From NCBI GenBank assembly GCA_963829335.1, contig CAWHIE010000001.1, positions 174,474 to 238,473 of the forward strand: DNA of 64,000 nt, given 5' to 3'. Of the stretch, positions 16,642 through 34,260 are shown one piece after another. Both the position numbers and the translations under genes were made by a program. The notes beneath the pieces are model-generated. The model made no database searches. It worked only from the letters and a program-made list of their open reading frames with translations, and had not been told where the DNA came from. The DNA comes from an uncultured Methanoregulaceae archaeon. Lineage in GTDB: Archaea; Halobacteriota; Methanomicrobia; Methanomicrobiales; Methanospirillaceae. Every line of letters begins with the position of its first letter. Positions within the stretch are counted from its first letter, which is position 1.

Positions 16642-17520
16642 ATGGATTCATGGAAAAGATACATTCTTTTTTTGATTCTCCTGGTAATAGTGACAGGTTC
16701 AGGCTGCATCTCACAACCTGCAGATAATACTTCTTCACCAATAACCATAACGAAGCAGCCACGGGAAGAGTCTACGCCCCGGTATATCGGGGATCACCGG
16801 TACTGGATCAGGATCGATCCTATCGCCGATTTTCGATCAGAGTCACCGTTTACAGTGACCGGAACATCGAAATTTAATATTAACGTGACAACTAATTACC
16901 CCGAAGGATCGCTTTTCTGGGTTAAAATTGTTGAAGTCGAGAGATCACGTCCCCTGATGTCAGAAGTCCTCGTTCCATCGAGTGTTAATAGTGACGGGGT
17001 GAATTCATTTTCCTATCCTTTTGATATTCAGGGCAATCCCCCGGCACATTACCACGTGGAGATCCGCAAGGCCAACCAGAATGTTACCGGACCAGAAGAG
17101 TTCAGGATTATCCTGATCCCTTCAAAAGAACCGTGGCTGTGGGTCCATATCGATCCAATCATATGGCCCCAACAAGATGAAAATCTGAACGTAACTGGGA
17201 CGACAAATCTTCCGGTGGGGAGTGAGATTTCACTTGAATCAGCGACATGGGGCCATACATGCGTATATCCAGTTCCTGGTTCACCACCTATAAATAAAAC
17301 CGGGATGCCGAGATCCTATTGCAATGGTGGATGCAATGAGAATATAGAAGGAACCTGTCCCGTTATTAAAGGGAATCAGGGAATAAATTTGTGGAGTGTA
17401 TACTCTCAATACAACAGACTGGTGTATTGATGAAAGACACTGGGTCAGTGCAGGAGTACGCAACTGGACGAATGTAACGGGGGATTACCAGGAATTTCTC
17501 AATTGGATAGATTTTTTTAA
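16642..17520 (+). CDS. Secreted lipoprotein with duplicated W.xIDPI..NVTxTTNLP module (frameshift near 17400; end approximate)
   Basis: Lipobox GSGC; YWIRIDPI..NVTTNYP and LWVHIDPI..NVTGTTNLP; continues as TLNTTDW in a second frame. Confidence 0.65.
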
Positions 17521-17797
17521 GTTCATTTTGATCCTTGCGATATCACATCTGAAGGTTACAAAAACTGCGAGACCGGTAATCCGGATTAATGAAAGTTATA
17601 AAGAGAAAATTGTGTTATTAATTAAGAGAAGTGGGAAGACAGGATTTTTTGAAATACCTGCATTAAGATGCAGTGCTCCGGCAGGTGACTCCTGTGTTTG
17701 GTCGGCAGATCCATGATGGCAGAGAAAATCGGGGATGAATTATCTCTCTGCCTCCAGATAAACCAGAGATCATATCGCCGGTAACGGGGTCACCGGA

Positions 17798-18129
17798 TCA
17801 CCCGGGAAAACCAAAAAATGAAAAGCCAACCTTCATGAGCACCGGCATATTCGTAGCACCGAGATAGATCACACAGCCGAGCAGTGCGAAATCTTCCGGC
17901 AGGTCAAAACCGATAATATAGTAATGGTATTTTTTCACGACAGCGTCAATAATCTCCGGGGACAGCGGCCTTTTCTGCGTCCGGCAGCATTGCCATCCTG
18001 GTTTGCCTCGTCCCATGCGAGAGGCTGTCTCTTCCAGAACCTGAAACCTTCTTTCAGGCCATACCCGAACGCGTGCCATTCGATATCGGTGAGGCCCAGA
18101 AAGACCGGGGTTACCGGGTCTTCCAGCAT
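17798..18129 (-). CDS. Hypothetical membrane protein, gene 4 of cassette (frameshift near 17980)
   Basis: MLEDPVTPVFLGLTDIEWHAFGYGLKEG.. joins ..PLSPEIIDAVVKKYHYYIIGFDLPEDFALLGCVIYLGA..; start overlaps the previous stop (TAATG). Confidence 0.6.
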
Positions 18130-18602
18130 TACAATCCCCCGTCTTTGATGGCGATCTCAAACACCGGGCTCGTGGAGCCGCCATTCCCCGGGCTGAAATC
18201 CCTGACCCGTCCCATCTGGGCGAACTTCCTGCGGCCTGTCCGGATCTGCACCATGTGGATCCCCGGTGCACGCGGCCAGACCCGGCGGCCATCTATATCG
18301 TGCATCTCCTCATAGGGCGGGATATCGAACCAGTCCGGCCAGAACCGTAGGCCCCGGGGAATATCGGTCCCCCGCCTCAGGTCCTGCAGCCGCATCGGCG
18401 AGAGGTTATCATAGATCACATCGATGATCAGGTTCTCATCACTTCTGTCCGGGTTCAGGTCCAGTTCATAGAAGACGGGATTCCGTCTCACTTCGTCCCG
18501 GGTAAGGGGTGTGTTCACCGTGAGCGGTTCAAGCCCGCCGGATGTTCCCCGGTACAGGCCGGTCACCCGTGCGACCGGTTGCGATACGGCTTCAGCTTCC
18601 AT
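18129..18602 (-). CDS. Hypothetical protein (157 aa), gene 3 of cassette
   Basis: Clean ORF with GGGAG RBS, coupled to both neighbours. Confidence 0.7.
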   Translation of the reverse strand: MEAEAVSQPVARVTGLYRGTSGGLEPLTVNTPLTRDEVRRNPVFYELDLNPDRSDENLIIDVIYDNLSPMRLQDLRRGTDIPRGLRFWPDWFDIPPYEEMHDIDGRRVWPRAPGIHMVQIRTGRRKFAQMGRVRDFSPGNGGSTSPVFEIAIKDGGL

Positions 18603-18756
18603 GCCAGTTCTCCCTCAGGCTTTCGTGTTCAGCCCGGAGTTTTTTGAATTCCTCAACGACCTCATCGTACCTGCCGATCTTCTGGTAGATGACAAACAGC
18701 ATCGGGTAGATCGGCAATACTGCTCCCAGCATAATGCCTAACAGTTCTATTTCCAT
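18592..18756 (-). CDS. Small membrane/coiled-coil protein (~54 aa), gene 2 of cassette
   Basis: MEIELLGIMLGAVLPIYPMLFVIYQKIGRYDEVVEEFKKLRAEHESL; one TM helix plus charged helix; GGAG RBS. Confidence 0.6.
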   Translation of the reverse strand: MEIELLGIMLGAVLPIYPMLFVIYQKIGRYDEVVEEFKKLRAEHESLRENWHGS

Positions 18757-18848
18757 ACGAATACTCCAGAAAAAAGACGAAAAATGCCCGGACGGAAAGG
18801 GGAACATTGCAGTTCCTATCCCTCCGGGCCTTTCTCGTCCGGATACGA

Positions 18849-19352
18849 TCAGGCTAATGCCGGAACGGTATCGGCCCAGGTATCGACCGCCGTCCGGATG
18901 GCATCATCCGAGTAGGAGGTGAGGGTCACCTGGCCCCGGCTGAAGTTCACCATGTACAGCTCGCCGTTCACATCGTGGCAGCGGAGCGATGCCGTATAGG
19001 TTTCCGAGTCCGGCTGGCGGACCGCGGTACCGGCGTGGGCGGTCGTGATGGCCGCTGCAGCGAGGGTCGCAGCGATACCGGCGTTGAACCCGGCGATGGT
19101 GTTGTACCGGTCGGATGCCGTACCCACCGACTTTGCCTCTGCATCCTCGTACACGATCTTTGCCACGTACGATTCACGGGTCTTTTCAACAGGCGGGTGG
19201 CTGACGCCTGCGGTCATATATGCTACACATGCAAACGGGTTGTCGGCGATGACCGACTGGACGATCGTGTTGAACGCCGCCACGTCTGCTATCGGGCTCG
19301 CGAGTTTGCGAACCGCACTTTTTACATTTGTGCTTTGGACAAAATCTGCCAT
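18849..19352 (-). CDS. Ala/Thr-rich hypothetical protein (MADFVQ..WADTVPALA), gene 1 of cassette
   Basis: Clean 167-aa ORF with host-like codon usage; I recall similar multicopy hypotheticals in Methanomicrobiales (not verified). Confidence 0.8.
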   Translation of the reverse strand: MADFVQSTNVKSAVRKLASPIADVAAFNTIVQSVIADNPFACVAYMTAGVSHPPVEKTRESYVAKIVYEDAEAKSVGTASDRYNTIAGFNAGIAATLAAAAITTAHAGTAVRQPDSETYTASLRCHDVNGELYMVNFSRGQVTLTSYSDDAIRTAVDTWADTVPALA

Positions 19353-19758
19353 TGTTTTTCAACTCTTTTTTGTGTTTTTCTGGCTGGTTCATCTGAACCA
19401 GGAAGATGGGAATGATGACATTTAGTCTCCATTCGAATCGGGGTGTCTCGGGGCCCTTTGACATACACTTATACGACGTGTGAGGGCTTAGTCGTGACTG
19501 AATCTTTTTGAAAATGGGGAAATGGGGATTGGATTGTTGTTTGATTGGGGATTGGGGCGTGTTATGAGCGGGGAACCTTTGGGAAAAAACGGGAGAATGG
19601 GGGAAAATTTGTTGATGAAATCAGTTATTTGCATTAATGGTCATATACAAATGGTTCGAACGCTTCTTTTTAAAATAAATCTAGAATTCGAGCAAATAGC
19701 ATAGGTTTTTCGATAATGAAATTAATAAATTAATTTAAAAAATTTATGGTAGACTTTA

Positions 19759-20478
19759 ATGAAAGATATAAAAAAAATTGTAGATCGATCTATAGAAAAA
19801 AATTGCAAATCGATTATATTTTATTATATTGCATATATTCAATTATTTATTTTACTCTCATCAATTATTTTAGTCATAATTGCTTTATTCGTGTTAATTT
19901 CATTCATTAATCTAATTTTCTCATTAGTATATGCCATAATCGTAGGCCTCTTTTTTTTGTTGTTTGGACGTTATGAGGAAAGATTGGGGGAAGATACGTA
20001 TCAATTAATACAAAAATATCCCGAAAGTCAGGTCGGGGAAAATCTCCATGCAATTATTATTGTGCATAAAAAATTGCCCAAAAAATCACCATATTCACCA
20101 AGTGATTACACCGAAGGAGTTGATATATTAATAAAAAAATTCCGAAACAATTCGATGCCTCAGAAATATCAAATATACGATATTTCTTTGAAAACAGAAT
20201 TTAAAGAAAAAATTGAAAATTGCAATGCTACCCACATATGGATTTTTGGTCATGGTCGACGATATGGGATAAAAACTATCGATGGTTTGTTATGTTATTT
20301 CGAATTAAAAAACATAGGACAAATCGAGTTTGTTGGACAATATCATTGTAATTCGTTATTAGGATCTAGTCTTGCTGATTATTATCACCCAAAGTATCAA
20401 GATGTCACCCGGTGGCCGAGATTTTCCTTTGGAATTCGGATATCTGTGAAGAAAAAATTAAATGAAATGGGAATATGA
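19759..20478 (+). CDS. Membrane-anchored caspase/CHAT-like cysteine protease
   Basis: Two N-terminal TM helices; HIWIFGHG and FVGQYHCNS give the His-Gly and Cys pattern of clan CD proteases. Confidence 0.6.
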   Translation: MKDIKKIVDRSIEKNCKSIIFYYIAYIQLFILLSSIILVIIALFVLISFINLIFSLVYAIIVGLFFLLFGRYEERLGEDTYQLIQKYPESQVGENLHAIIIVHKKLPKKSPYSPSDYTEGVDILIKKFRNNSMPQKYQIYDISLKTEFKEKIENCNATHIWIFGHGRRYGIKTIDGLLCYFELKNIGQIEFVGQYHCNSLLGSSLADYYHPKYQDVTRWPRFSFGIRISVKKKLNEMGI

Positions 20479-20973
20479 TATAAAAAAAAGAACCCAATCG
20501 GTAAATATGTGGTTGAATAAGGTCACGAATTACCAGGAAAAGGAGATTTCTTACGGTTATCTGATAGCGTTAAAAACGAGAGAAATTAGTACGTTCTCTG
20601 ACAGTTCAGAACGTCACTTTTAACGTTTCAACGTCAGGACTAAACGTTAGAGACGTGACGATTCCGACAAAATTCGACAAAAATACTTACATTAACTTAC
20701 GCGGAATAGCAGGAAATGGGATTTTCGAAGGGAACTTTATACTACATGAAAAAGAATGCGAAGGCCCATAAACCATTTACTCTAAATAAAAATGTTAGAG
20801 AAAGGCTGGAGTAGTGGGGGTTTGAGGGAAATCCGGGAATGTGTGGAAAGGATTAATCAATTGCCATGAAATTTAATCTGATGCATTCTGATATAAAGGG
20901 CATACTGATTATTATAGTTCATTACTAGCGATGATTCCCTTTGCCCATTATGCGGCTTCTGAAACGGATGAGC

Positions 20974-22165
20974 CTATTTTAAAGTTGATCTAAATAATAT
21001 TTCAGATTCAGCATCCTTTAAAGTTCCCAATTTTTTAATTTGTTCATTTAATACACTTGTCTCACGTTGAATTGAAAGCAATTTCATTCTATCCTCAGAA
21101 CTTGATGGAAAATCTGGAGCGACTCTGATAATGGTTGTTATAGATATTATCAAGACAAAACCCGCAATAAATAATGTTGACAAATCCAAGTATCTCCAAT
21201 AAAATATAAAAATAAATAACAATATATATGCAATAATTGTCAGAGGCAAATAAACATAAAGAAATTTTCTCTGTTTCATCCTTTTTTGTAAGGCATATTG
21301 CATCTTATCATAATTATTTAATTTGATCATATTTTCTTCATATTGTTCCTTAATTGGCTGTCGAATTTTGTCTGCTTTATCTTTGATCCAAATATCAAGT
21401 TCGGAAGTTATGGTTTCACCAAATATTGCCTTTATTGTTTGCATTACAGTCGAATGTATGATTATTCCCATAATTGAGATCGAGAGCCAATTTTCGTCGT
21501 GCATATGCTTTCACAACTTCAGCATCCCAAGGGATTGGATTTGGATATTTAACTACTTCAAGAAAATCTGTGAATGACTGAACAAAGTCTGGCAGCAATT
21601 TATTAAGCAAAATCCATGTTCGATCGATTGTTAAATCCTCTCTTAATAAACCTTTTAACCGCTCGACTCCAGCAGCTGACACTGGATCATATTCAGAAAC
21701 TATTATCACTTCATCTGAAATTCCTCTTTTCATACAAAATTGAGAAACCGGATTCGATCCGGTCTTGAGTATCAATAAATATGAAATCGAATTTTACTTT
21801 TGAGAATCTCAATATAGTATCAAGTCTAAATTTAAATGTTTCAAAAGGCACATTTTTAGTGTCAGAAAATGAAAAGATCGCTGGGAAAAAGACCACACCA
21901 TTTTTCATTTGAATTAATTCAAAGCTGTTTTATCTGATTTTTGTTCAAAAAGCCCTAAAGCATCCCTCTTTTGAGAAATTGCTATTTCAGCCTTGAGTTT
22001 TACTTCATCTATATAAAAAATTGTTAATCCATTGGTAGAGGCATCAGCATCAATAATAAGAACTTTTTTTCCCAATGCTACTAAAAATTCTGCAAAGGTT
22101 GCAGTAAGAAATGTTTTACCAGTCCCTCCTTTTGCACTTGCCATACAATAAATTTTAGCTTCCAC
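20974..22165 (-). CDS. ParA/MinD-type ATPase with C-terminal coiled coil and 2 TM helices (about 3 frameshifts)
   Basis: SAKGGTGKT, VLIIDADASTNG, FDFIFIDTQ, DEVIIVSEYDPVS, LLNK and IPWD spread across ORFs 21914-22192, 21711-21908, 21416-21775 and 20974-21504. Confidence 0.7.
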
Positions 22166-22697
22166 CTCTCGCCCCCTCCCACTCTTTAACAAGAGTCGAT
22201 GTATTGCTTATCTCTGAAGAAACTGCACTTTCTATATCGATTGTCGGATAACCCGCGGCGATTGGTTGATATGCTGCGTTAAATTCTTCAAAAGTCATCC
22301 CTTTGGTAAGAAAACACTCTACAAGTGGCATAATTCTTTCTTTGAACCTTAAAATTTGTCTTTGATCTTCAAGCAAAATTGCCACCTGTTTTTTAAATTC
22401 TGGTTCATTGTTACAAGGATCATTATAATATGATAAATATGCCATACGAAAATTGAATACAAGATTTTGATTAGACTCATCGATTTTAATAAGTATATGT
22501 GATGCTTTTTGAGCCCTTTTAGCATCAGCCTTTCCTATTAAATTATTAACCGCAGCACTTATAGAAAAAGTACTTCTACATCTTTAATAAATAGGGGAAT
22601 CGCATCATCGATATTTTTGAATCTAGTTTTTTTAGTAATGCCATCTGGGCAAGGAATTTCCTCTGTTTTTGAAAAAAAATGCGGATAATAAATTCAT
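22155..22697 (-). CDS. Hypothetical protein (~180 aa, frameshift near 22565) coupled to the ParA-like gene
   Basis: MNFIIRIFFSKTEEIPCPDG.. continues into ..NLVFNFRMAYLSYYNDPC..; its stop overlaps the ParA GTG start. Confidence 0.55.
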
Positions 22698-22924
22698 TTT
22701 AAATAGATCTATTGATTCTTGCAATAAAAATATATCTCCACATAAATAAAGATTTTAAAAAAATTTAAATGATTCTGAAGGATTAGAATGCGTAAAAATT
22801 ATATTTTTTATTATAAAATATTGGTGTCCCTCGCGCTGATTACTCTGAAGATATAGTGAAATTCAAAATAAAGGCTACGCAAAAAAAAGGTTTACATGAG
22901 CTAGATAACTATAACCCATAACAA

Positions 22925-22946
22925 TGCAAGAGACCGGATTCGAACC
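22925..22946 (-). repeat. tRNA(Leu)-like 3' fragment; probable att site
   Basis: Minus strand GG TTCGAAT CCGGT CTCTTGC A = T-loop, 3' T-stem, 7-nt acceptor strand and discriminator A; no 5' half. Confidence 0.7.
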
Positions 22947-23153
22947 CCATCTTCACTAATCATTCCTTTACTCCTTTTCTGAGATAATAGCGATGCTGGG
23001 ACCGTTGAGAATGGAATTCGAAAAAAAACATTCTTAATCGTTGCCGGAATGGAAAGGATGAAACAAAAAAGAGCCCAAGCATCGCCAATATCCTCCATGC
23101 TCAACACCTTTAACCTCCCCCACCACAAACTCACTAATCGCGAGAGATAACTC

Positions 23154-23441
23154 ATGGCCGTCTTCAGGTACGAGAACAAATACGCCGCCCCGACAAAGGA
23201 GCAGCGGGAACGCTACATGAAAGGGGAGCGTGAGGAGCATCATTTCGGGCCGGACGGGCAGATCGTGCTCATCCTCTGGCCTGAAGCAGCATACCTGAAA
23301 GATGACATTGACAACGTCCGGATCCTCTTTACCGGGTATAAGGATAAACAGAAGGTGCAGGATGAGGTGCGGAGGCTGGTGGAGTACCACCAGCAGAAGG
23401 ATAAACGCACAGGATCATTTTCTTCCGGAAATGAAACATAA
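23154..23441 (+). CDS. Hypothetical protein (95 aa) whose 3' end is duplicated downstream
   Basis: Clean ORF with host-like codon usage; contains repeat copy 1. Confidence 0.75.
   Translation: MAVFRYENKYAAPTKEQRERYMKGEREEHHFGPDGQIVLILWPEAAYLKDDIDNVRILFTGYKDKQKVQDEVRRLVEYHQQKDKRTGSFSSGNET
23355..23434 (+). repeat. 80-bp direct repeat, copy 1
   Basis: Matches 24373..24452 at 76/80 positions. Confidence 0.95.
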
Positions 23442-23452
23442 TCTTTATCTTA
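23441..23452 (+). promoter_or_regulatory. Putative TATA box for the structured-repeat/TA transcript
   Basis: ATCTTTATCTTA about 25 bp upstream of repeat unit A. Confidence 0.4.
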
Positions 23453-23469
23453 ACGCGATTACAATACTG

Positions 23470-23676
23470 TAAGTGGTTACAAAACTTTAAAGGCTGTAAG
23501 AGGGCGAAGCAGCAAACCGTGCTGTGATTGTATCCCTAACCAATTTAGCCTAGTCAGACCGACCTACACGAAGCTTAAGTGGGTACACAGAACTAAAGGC
23601 AGTAAGAGGACAACGCAACGAAACGTACCGCGATTGTATTCCTAAACCAATTTTGCCTAACGAACCAACCCGAGCT
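23470..23676 (+). ncRNA. Two tandem ~105-nt structured units (putative ncRNA / 5' leader)
   Basis: Units 23470..23575 and 23576..23676 align with conserved blocks and compensatory pairs (AGGCT/AGCCT vs AGGCA/TGCCT; AGGG/CCCT vs AGGA/TCCT). Confidence 0.65.
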
Positions 23677-31722: not shown

Positions 31723-34260
31723 TCATAATACTCCCAGCGTGACCTGCCCGGATACAGCCTGCTCTGCCGCAATCCGCTCCTGCTCATTCTTGAACCGGAG
31801 GCCGGACCAGTACCCGGTCGATGCCGGATTTTCCCCCATCGGTTACGCCAATATCCCGCAGTGCTGCAAAAAGTCTCTTTTTGGAGATATGCTGCTTGTA
31901 TCCTTCTTCTTCACACCATCTCTCGAACACTTCATTCATCGCCATGCGTGAAATCCGGGACCGGCTTCGACAATGCATTCCGTTGCCAAAAACAACCCAA
32001 CCGTATCGCTCACTGTTCGCAGGTTCCCGGTCGCAACGGATACTTTGCGGGGCTGCACCAGTCTCCCGCCGTTTTCGTAAAACCGCTTGAGCCCGCACAG
32101 GCACCAGTTCAGGATCCCGGCTGACTCCGTAAGCAGTTTCGCCGCGATATCGGGATCGCACTTATCCTCCGGGATCTGGACGGCGAACGGCACCATCCAG
32201 ATCCGACGCCAGATGCCGTCATCAGTGCCCTTGATTACGGGCTCGTGGTTCGTGGTCAGCCAGATCTTTGCCATGGGCGTGAACTCGAACTCATTCTCAT
32301 AGAGCTTCCGCACGGTGATCGCATACTCGCCGGTGATCTGCTTGATGATCGACTCGTCCATCCGTGCACCTTCCGCTCCTTCCGCCGCCGTTGCGAGCCG
32401 GGCGCCTGCGAGCCGTGCCAGGTCAGAACGGGCATTCTCGAACCGTTTGGCCACCAGGGACTCGGCGGCGATGTTGACCGCATAGTCATCGAGGATGCGG
32501 GCGAGCACCTCGATGGTCTTTGACTTCCCGTTCCTGCCTTTCCCGTAGAGGATAAACATCACCTGCTGGGGGTTGGTGCCCAGCAGGGAGTACCCGCACA
32601 TGGACTGGAACCCCGCGAGGTAATCGGCATCCCCGCCAAAGATGAGGCTGAGGTGGGCGAGCCACTGCGGACAGGCCGCCTCCGGGTCATACGTAATCGC
32701 TGCCTTTTTTGTCAGCATATCTCCGGGGAGGTGGTCCCGGAAGGTCATGGTATCGAGTTCGAGCGTCCCGTTCCGGCAGTTGAGGAGGTGTACCGGTGCG
32801 TCGAACACTTCCGGGAGTACCGGGATGTGCGGGGCTGCGGAATCAATCATCGCTTTCCTCGCGTGCAGGCTCTCGGAACACAGTGCCCAGCGGGAAAGTG
32901 CCCGGGACTCGTCCGCGGTCGATGCGACCGCTGCCTCGTTGTGTATCGAACGTGCAACATCGGTGGCGATCAAAAGCATCCTGCCGCTGTCATCCCGTTC
33001 CCAGACCGTGCCGTTCCAGAGATACCATGCATTGAAGGTCGCACAGTAACGAACAGATTCACCATATTGTGCAATGAGCCGTTCGCCATTTCCCGCATCG
33101 GTCAGGGCAAACGGTACTGATGGATGACCGTTCTTTTGTACCGGAAGCGTGCTCTCCGTTGACTTCGCTTGTGCCCGTTCTTTCTTTCCCGCAGTAATCC
33201 GCCGCTCCTGGCGTTTCTGCCGTTCTTCGGTTGTCTCGTACTTCTCACGCAGTTCCTTCCACCGCTGCTTCCCGCCGCCACAGGAGGCATGGTGACAGCC
33301 GGCAAAGACCGCGCCGTTTTTGAACTGGATCGCGTACGCTCCGTCCCTGTGCGCCGCAGAAAATGGGCAGGTATCAAGGAGGTAGATTCTCCCATCCTGG
33401 TAGGGTTTTTCGGATTTTACCCGGATTCCATGTGCGTTCATCCAATCCGGCAAATGCAGAATATTCTTATACCCCTTTATTTCCACTGGAGTTTCAGACG
33501 GAACCTGGGCTTTGGTGGGGAGCTGTGAAACAAGATAAAGTAACTGTTCTGAGGTAACAATAGTGAGCAGATCCGGAGCAGAGAGCATCCGGCTCCTCCG
33601 GTGCGGACGTTCGGCGGTATGGTCACCTTTGCGTGCCATGGTACCGTATAATTTCCAGATCCGCCCGGCGTTGTAGTTTGCGGCATCGACCGATACCTGC
33701 GAGTCCGAGAAGAGGAGATCGAGCGTGACAAGGCACTGTCGTACGAGGTTCTTTGAACGTTCATCGTTGGGCAGGTCGATTCGGTAAAGCAGGTGGGCCC
33801 CGTTGCCGGAGTCGCCCCGGACCGGTCCCGGAAAACCCAGGCCGTTCAGCCATCCTGCGATCTCCCCGGCTTTTCTTAGGGCATGGTCGTGCTCGATATC
33901 CGTACTTGAAACCCCGCCAGGTCGGACCGGGTCGATATCAATCGGGAGCCATCTGCGCCGGACAATATCCGCATCGCCGGTGGTCGCATCTGATCTGGAG
34001 AGGTGCATCTTGATCCGGTTGGCACGCCGTGCGAGCAGGGCGGGATTCACTTCGTTGAGAGTAACATAGATCCCGTGCACTGCCGGGTCGGTATCGAGTG
34101 GCTCCACAATCCGGGCAAGTGCGGCAGTCTCGGTGAAGTACCCGCTGTGCGTACTGGTTTCAGCGAGAGCCCGGAGCTCGATCACCTGGCCAGGGTCTGC
34201 GAGGACATGCAGTACTGATTCAAGACTGTTGACCGGGGAAGTGTCCCCGGAATCAGTCAT
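31723..34260 (-). CDS. AEP primase-polymerase / Zn-finger / D5-P4-type SF3 helicase (frameshifts near 31950 and 31810)
   Basis: WLPIDID, DSGNGAHLLY, RIWKLYGT; CPF..H..CHHASC; TDAGNGERL; GKGRNGKS Walker A; TTNHEP..DDGIWRR; winged-helix tail FERWCEEEG in a shifted frame. Confidence 0.92.

Follow-up and report, generated by a model that had tools for sequence, protein, structure and literature searches.

What is encoded by a compact gene cassette that matches no known protein family and recurs within the genome of its host? The cassette lies in a 64,000-nucleotide stretch of DNA (the window; G000:C1:174474-238473) from an uncultured Methanoregulaceae archaeon, a Methanoregula-type assembly of 13 contigs that is 76% complete. 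It comprises four co-oriented minus-strand genes, which we call g1 to g4, preceded by a conserved non-coding region. A first-pass annotation had seen in it a coat-like protein with membrane or holin-like companions, belonging to a small undescribed virus, satellite or particle-forming system. The answer we tentatively favour, at somewhat less than even confidence, is an accessory "conflict" module that is carried on islands and specific to Methanomicrobiales; the locus would be one copy of it, and an abundant soluble g1 would control its membrane-acting partners. This answer draws on architecture and genomic context. The observations accord better with an accessory, selfishly duplicating module than with a housekeeping gene or a structural module of a virus, because the unit is compact, multicopy, often decayed and island-borne, its partners are interchangeable and its expression is apparently asymmetric.

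The g1 protein founds an orphan family restricted to Methanomicrobiales. A g1 profile detects the family in 44 of the 47 Methanomicrobiales genomes, distributed over six families, and in none of the 254 genomes from the other families of the phylum. Relatives number 1,274 among non-redundant clusters (433 clusters at 50% identity), and those with names are almost all "hypothetical protein" from Methanoregula or other methanogens. Genomes with g1 contain one to 11 matches, many of them fragments or interrupted by stop codons, and the neighbours vary from copy to copy; the multicopy state in this order, proposed in the first-pass annotation, is thereby borne out. The genome of the window harbors two full cassettes (72% g1 identity) and one additional diverged g1 copy, and Methanoregula boonei 6A8 has six g1 genes but two g2-g3-g4 sets. 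Copies within a genome share 34–75% identity and are old paralogues, not recent proviruses. The g1 tree mostly follows the host families and contains several old paralogue clades inside Methanoregulaceae, one of which is without membrane partners. With these queries, no g1 match was obtained in some complete genomes (G036 and G227) of genera that otherwise carry the gene. The g3 gene was found only in Methanoregula, in both of the other Methanoregula genomes and in none of the 58 others in the order, and g2 and g4 were seen only beside it. Since g1 is order-wide, whereas g3 was found only in this genus and there in some copies, g1 is the ancient constant part of the module and g3, with g2 and g4 beside it, is a genus-level addition.

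A survey of 69 g1 loci from 30 genomes, oriented on g1, revealed a single recurrent class of neighbour, namely a very small single-pass membrane protein. By motif, a recognisable small single-pass membrane open reading frame (ORF) adjoins g1 in 53 of the 65 full-length copies. The partners fall into at least four lineage-specific types, each conserved within itself and showing no demonstrable kinship to the others. In Methanoregula, the g2 type (54 residues) is located downstream of g1. The g2b type (~45 residues, MDNE...WDRVLDHME) starts 2–50 nucleotides after the g1 stop codon in Methanoregula and in the genera numbered g15 and g7 in our survey. The u81 type (~80 residues) is encoded divergently, 60–460 nucleotides upstream of g1, in the families numbered f3-f5, including Methanoculleus bourgensis MS2, where BN140_1234 adjoins BN140_1233, and Methanoplanus endosymbiosus. 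A fourth type of 32–38 residues belongs to a Methanocorpusculum-like genome. In the g2 protein, a hydrophobic helix at the N-terminus precedes a charged helix that is conserved (QKIGRYDEVVEEFKKLR), and mean column identity is 81% in an alignment of 18 sequences. In u81, a coiled coil occupies the N-terminus and a glycine-rich, GxxxG-rich transmembrane helix (AGAGGVVGGVVAV) the C-terminus. Profile comparison detects no homology between g2 and u81, and the hhalign probability for g2 and g2b is only 35%, which leaves their homology unproven. Complex prediction for g1 with g2 (alignments A1 and A3) gave a score of 0.00, which says nothing either way. Separately, three Methanoculleus-type loci (L046, L048 and L062) contain, besides the divergent u81 gene, an extra ORF of 64–66 residues (MPID..VIVAGV..AIPTVADALDRRARRNAGID) located 31–32 nucleotides after the g1 stop codon, and its product has an N-terminal hydrophobic helix.

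The extent of the module is delimited by its duplications. In Methanoculleus-type genomes, the duplicated DNA spans -420 to +525 around the g1 start, i.e. ~950 base pairs (bp) containing u81, g1 and the hairpin that follows g1. These units are 84–97% identical at the DNA level within and between genomes and end abruptly, with unrelated flanks. In the Methanocorpusculum-like genome (G327), g1 lies towards the end of a ~4-kilobase (kb) unit present in five copies (L055-L057, L075, L076, L079-L083), which encodes in order a 121-residue protein, an HNH_3/HTH protein, an 86-residue zinc-finger protein, a 193-residue protein, a 61–69-residue HTH protein, g1 and the 32–38-residue membrane ORF. Among these copies the DNA identity of g1 is 85–96%, against 66–85% for the upstream genes.

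Each of the four neighbourhoods that came with Pfam labels is a defence or mobile island; g1 copies share such islands with restriction/DISARM-like genes, toxin-antitoxin pairs, Cdc6 and integrases. The first contains DUF499, a DUF1156 methylase and an SNF2 helicase; the second a DEAD helicase, PLDc_2, ArdC and an integrase; the third DndB, ScoMcrA, MNT/HepT and HicB; and the fourth NERD-UvrD, Cdc6 and an integrase. Further g1 copies adjoin Cdc6, primase-like, HNH and Schlafen/AlbA_2 genes. The link to mobile DNA suspected in the first-pass annotation is thus supported by copies elsewhere in the order. At one Methanoregula locus (L092:6138-7902), five tightly packed, co-oriented small ORFs of 123, 128, 139, 123 and 82 residues, with no Pfam match, are located directly upstream of g1, between a DndB/ScoMcrA/RNase III cluster and the cassette.

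The DNA around g1 carries signals that point to asymmetric expression. Paralogues that differ by 30% at the protein level retain ~170–250 conserved nucleotides upstream of g1. In the window, the non-coding region (19603-19445) starts with a C-rich block, which forms the distal end of the region conserved before several g1 copies. Its g1-proximal part is a promoter/leader block with three elements: TTCAGTCACGACTAAGCCCT (19502-19483), the TATA-like TATAAGTGTAT (19473-19463) and GTCAAAGGGCCCCGAGAC (19462-19445). The promoter motif has three sites in the genome of the window, two before g1 copies and one before a g1-less remnant with a decayed g2b gene. Every exact occurrence of the pattern in three other genomes precedes g1, and the control gave 0 matches. 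A short leader ORF had been proposed to precede the cassette. This ORF (19186-19464) overlaps g1 out of frame, and its ATG (19464-19462) lies within the motif TATGTCAAAGGGCCCCGAGAC, which is kept upstream of g1 copies whatever the reading frame; we therefore read the site as a probable promoter/leader DNA element, not a conserved peptide. At G000:C5:2844-4716, a g1-type promoter motif (GTCAAAGGGGCCC at 2968) occurs without g1 and is accompanied instead by three ORFs, of 114 residues, of 95 residues and, 1.5 kb on, a decayed g2b-like ORF. The 95-residue ORF resembles a 134-residue gene upstream of one M. boonei g1 copy, with a PD-(D/E)xK-like pattern and no Pfam match. Here the element may have been rearranged, or it may exist in a larger form.

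The 96-nucleotide spacer between g1 and g2 is predicted to form, right behind the g1 stop codon, a long, GC-rich hairpin (-43.3 kcal/mol, z -4.47), with runs of T5 and T6 within its 3' arm and shortly downstream of it. By our untallied reading of the fold listing, a stable hairpin follows the g1 stop codon in most other copies, and in several g2b-type copies the predicted hairpin takes in the start codon of the partner. A search of positions 17000-23500 against Rfam returned only weak, sub-threshold hairpin look-alikes. The hairpin may be terminator- or attenuator-like, or may stabilise the transcript. As g1 has its own promoter and is followed by this hairpin, its product would be expected to be far more abundant than those of the downstream genes. 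In the puf and pap operons, intercistronic stem-loops set the unequal output of the first and later genes. The cassette resembles them in having a strong predicted hairpin immediately after a presumably abundant first gene, followed by coupled downstream genes; the analogy covers regulation only and nothing of function.

Table 1 Features of the cassette in the window.
Feature	Position in window	Strand	Description
g1	18849..19352	-	167 residues (MADFVQ...), soluble alpha+beta protein, constant core of the module
g2	18592..18756	-	54 residues, single-pass membrane protein
g3	18129..18602	-	157 residues, modelled immunoglobulin-like beta-sandwich
g4	17798..18129	-	short variant (109-111 residues) of the fourth gene, frameshift at 17969-17970
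Post-g1 hairpin	18775..18843	-	long, GC-rich, directly after the g1 stop codon
Promoter/leader block	19445..19502	-	conserved, three parts
C-rich upstream block CCCCCATTCTCCCGTTTTTTCCCAA	19579..19603	-	from an alignment of 32 upstream regions

The cassette itself agrees in part with the first-pass annotation (Table 1): the four genes are co-oriented, the first three have the sizes given there, and the last three overlap as described, g2 and g3 by 11 nucleotides and the g3 stop and g4 start by one (TAATG). The fourth gene, described as a membrane protein of ~110 residues, is not a single open frame. Its frame from the ATG at 18129 ends after 64 residues, and a continuous product of ~110 residues needs a frame change at 17969-17970, adjoining an A4 run. 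The two pieces (18129-17971 and 17968-17801) match residues 1-53 and 54-107 of one intact 109-residue ORF in a related genome, with 72–75% identity, and therefore mark a frame break. The product would have at most one hydrophobic segment. In most copies, g4 encodes instead a polytopic membrane protein of 194 residues, to which the short form in the window is distantly related (29% identity, E 4e-4). As the second cassette of the same assembly (G000:C4:357831-358866) also has frame breaks in g3 and g4, an indel-prone assembly is as likely as real decay. The combination of 76% completeness with only 13 contigs suggests such an assembly, presumably from long reads, rather than or besides pseudogenes. 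For g3, a usable model was obtained in one of five runs (predicted local distance difference test score (pLDDT) 80); it is beta-rich and matches generic immunoglobulin-like sandwiches, with Z at most 7.6.

The surroundings of the cassette in the window are of uneven composition. An AT-rich insert of 3.3 kb begins ~50 bp from the upstream end of the cassette, as had been proposed, and the GC content at 19–23 kb is 32–42% compared with 45–58% on the flanks. At the edge of this insert (19648-19655), GTTCGAAC resembles part of a tRNA T-arm, and it is found ~45 bp beyond the C-rich block both in the window and in a related copy (L025); it may be an attachment-site remnant common to cassette copies. 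The two g1 copies concerned, which belong to two species, both adjoin a histidine-kinase gene. The primase-helicase gene 12 kb away (31936-34260), which the first-pass annotation linked to the cassette, encodes a genuine D5_N/DUF5906 protein. Among the ORFs scanned between the two, the one clear match is a major facilitator superfamily transporter, and the proposed link finds no backing there. ARAGORN calls a tRNA-Ala(GGC) on the minus strand (32590-32672) inside this primase-helicase ORF, a probable false positive or embedded remnant.

The proteins offer few clues from known families. No significant Pfam, NCBIfam, PHROG or PADLOC match was found for g1 to g4, nor a Pfam, NCBIfam or PADLOC match for u81, and none of these five proteins has sequence membership in the toxin-antitoxin families of Pfam, NCBIfam and PADLOC. 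The earlier remark that no enzyme motif is present thus holds for the cassette proteins across these profile libraries. The sole match in PADLOC-DB 2.0 is between g2 and a 4TM effector at chance level (E 0.038), and the Pfam family S_4TM is likewise far below cut-off for g2 (E 0.031). Among PDB sequences, profile searches with g1, g3 and u81 gave no match below E 0.04.

The AlphaFold2 model of g1, built from a 40-sequence alignment, is confident (pLDDT 92.5, predicted TM-score 0.82) and shows about nine strands in an antiparallel sheet, against which four helices pack, forming an alpha+beta sandwich. Foldseek gives no match to this model at E <= 0.001 in PDB or in the viral predicted structures of BFVD, the best E being at least 0.0036. 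With the exhaustive aligner VIA, the best Z is 7.1 over ~80 residues, for KA1, COR and TBP-like domains, a level typical for unrelated folds according to the aligner's own notice. Searches of the ESM Atlas by features and by shape returned only the unnamed archaeal clusters of the g1 family itself. The best partial matches (KA1 domains, the Roco COR domain, Mediator Med18/20 and CYTH proteins) share with g1 the antiparallel sheet packed by helices that characterises two-layer TBP-like, KA1-like and CYTH-like folds, but at these scores the resemblance is weak. A CYTH/triphosphate tunnel metalloenzyme was considered for g1 and rejected: the ExExK motif is missing from the g1 alignment, and the TM-score of the fold is 0.25–0.43. 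In alignment A1, strand 1 reads K-S-A-V-R-x-L, and of the polar residues only R15, N38, Y45, C125, R139, S146 and D161 are nearly invariant; W159 is nearly invariant as well. The length of 167 residues and both termini are strongly conserved. No g1 fusions of at least 294 residues were found among the relatives, and longer representatives are mostly read-through artefacts. One metagenomic homologue (P0275, 283 residues) has an N-terminal extension of 118 residues with three to four hydrophobic helices, which may reflect either a naturally occurring fusion between g1 and a membrane anchor or a start codon called in error.

In the conflict module that we propose, the core would be g1, with its own promoter motif and a post-stop hairpin that often has a U-tract, together with a tiny single-pass membrane protein. 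In Methanoregula, this core would be extended by the beta-sandwich protein g3 and the membrane protein g4, both translationally coupled to g2. The g1 protein would be made in excess, with the hairpin limiting read-through into the genes of the membrane partners. Acting as effectors, the small membrane proteins would perturb the membrane, and g1 would either restrain them or, as a sensor, release them. What is observed is the structure of the genes, their copy number and taxonomic range, the association with partners, the extent of the duplicated unit and the island setting; the expression ratio, any contact between g1 and its partners, their toxicity and a role in conflict are all predictions of this scheme.

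Functionally, the module would be closest to toxin-antitoxin, abortive-infection or exclusion systems whose effectors are small membrane proteins. Examples of toxin-antitoxin and abortive-infection modules of this sort are lambda RexA/RexB, Hok- and TisB-type small membrane toxins, and the transmembrane effectors of CBASS and Pycsar. The module resembles systems of this kind in its compact two-to-four-gene cassette, which combines a soluble component with one or more small membrane proteins, in its many diverged and often decayed copies per genome, in its placement in defence and mobile islands, and in a membrane component apparently throttled by RNA structure. It differs from them in being near-universal in one archaeal order, in matching none of their known members by sequence or profile, and in a g1 that lacks a DNA-binding domain.

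Several observations weigh against this interpretation. Twelve of the 65 full-length g1 copies, one whole subclade included, have no recognisable membrane partner. The neighbourhoods with Pfam labels number only four, island context is guilt by association, and some g1 copies are located beside ordinary genes, for example the mtr operon and metG. Moreover, the module proteins show no homology, by sequence or profile, to a known toxin, antitoxin or defence protein, and g1 has no DNA-binding domain of the sort typical for antitoxins. Finally, the near-universality of g1 in the order and its host-like tree would also fit a vertically inherited cellular function.

This last point leads to the strongest rival, a lineage-specific cellular system for housekeeping or stress, for instance in envelope or membrane maintenance, in which an abundant cytoplasmic g1 would work with small membrane anchors and the paralogues would have expanded as in small stress-protein families. 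In addition to the range and the tree, the strongly conserved length, termini and promoter motif of g1 speak for such a system, as does the position of the window copy and its L025 counterpart beside a histidine-kinase gene in two species. It is nevertheless unlikely. A copy number of 0 to 11 with many fragments and pseudogenes, the complete genomes G036 and G227 in which these queries found no g1, and partner genes that are swapped between lineages are not what a housekeeping function would lead one to expect; nor are a duplicated unit with sharp gene-end boundaries and unrelated flanks, and repeated placement in defence and integrase islands.

The structural module of a small virus, satellite or particle, with g1 as coat or nucleoprotein and g2 and g4 in the membrane or in holin-like egress, is considerably less probable still, and our analysis found no positive evidence for it. 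Features that would suit it are the layout with its predicted excess of g1, the conservation of both g1 termini, as in assembling subunits, copies in the setting of integrated elements, beside Cdc6, primase-like and integrase genes, and the ~4-kb five-copy unit with HNH/HTH genes. The u81 protein also recalls a phage membrane-protein family: u81 of M. bourgensis MS2 matches phrog_1103 along its full length (E 2.4e-6, residues 12-74 of 80), a family of holin/XhlA architecture, and resembles it in its ~80 residues, N-terminal coiled coil and glycine-rich C-terminal transmembrane helix. The other three u81 queries reach only E 0.016–0.35 against phrog_1103, which itself has no assigned function, and g2 of the window, which has the reverse topology and by profile comparison is unrelated to u81, does not match it. 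Unlike phage holin/XhlA proteins, the module has no lysis enzyme or other phage gene linked to it. Against a coat protein, the best structural matches of the confident g1 model are non-capsid domains and include no capsid fold. The comparison with capsid and coat folds that the first-pass annotation had called for yielded nothing for g1, which with low probability may have a coat fold of a new kind, and only generic sandwiches for g3. The 50,697 phage and virus records of GenBank gave no relative of g1 or u81; PLSDB plasmids, searched with g1, and IMG/VR contigs, searched with two g1 queries, likewise gave none. In addition, no packaging, replication, capsid or integrase gene travels consistently with g1, the duplicated unit can be as small as ~950 bp, and the within-genome copies look too old for recent proviruses. 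A k-mer scan of the assembly of the window found no repeat array of clustered regularly interspaced short palindromic repeats (CRISPR). Our literature search found no paper citing accession numbers or locus tags of the M. boonei and M. bourgensis proteins, and nothing relevant on Methanomicrobiales proviruses. The first-pass annotation had named a fold matching ordinary cellular enzymes, or a single-copy, syntenically fixed locus with no link to mobile DNA, as what would count against its proposal; what we find is no enzyme match, many copies and copies linked to mobile and defence DNA.

Equally improbable is an archaeocin-type or exclusion system, in which glycine-rich membrane peptides would be exported or inserted as killing or exclusion factors, g1 would be their immunity or processing protein and strain competition would drive diversification: the many lineage-specific small hydrophobic partners, u81 with its GxxxG-rich helix among them, the multicopy and fast-diverging family, and the identity to the window protein of g1 relatives (68–75%, five closer) against that of g3 relatives (76–92%), in the best 120 matches of each search, would agree with it, but no signal or leader peptide, transporter or protease is consistently linked, and g1 looks cytoplasmic and is much better conserved than typical immunity proteins. 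The remaining share of probability falls to something else.

Returning to the conflict module, a bolder version would see in g1 and its tiny partner a hitherto unrecognised class of conflict system that acts on membranes and is specific to archaea, a new type of toxin-antitoxin or abortive infection that has been endemic since the origin of the order, with interchangeable effectors and a new soluble sensor or neutraliser fold. We regard this version as rather doubtful. A still stranger alternative would have nearly all members of the order build an undescribed particle or intracellular structure out of g1. New here are the order-wide range of g1, its pairing with a tiny membrane protein of varying type, the ~950-bp unit and the island context. 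The protein families are undescribed, and the kind of system proposed is known in outline.

In wetlands, digesters and sediments, Methanomicrobiales are a major source of methane, and to our knowledge almost nothing is known of how they handle viruses and mobile DNA. The g1 family has more than 1,200 public sequence clusters and up to 11 copies per genome, yet it stands outside Pfam, NCBIfam, PHROGs and PADLOC. The module is carried by the cultured strains M. boonei 6A8 and M. bourgensis MS2 (BN140_1233/1234), and is therefore experimentally testable. Should it prove to be a conflict system that acts on membranes, the catalogue of defence and toxin-antitoxin systems would gain an archaeal class, and genomic islands in Methanomicrobiales a marker. 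If, on the other hand, g1 belongs to a cellular structure or a particle, it would represent an order-defining trait that has so far gone undescribed.

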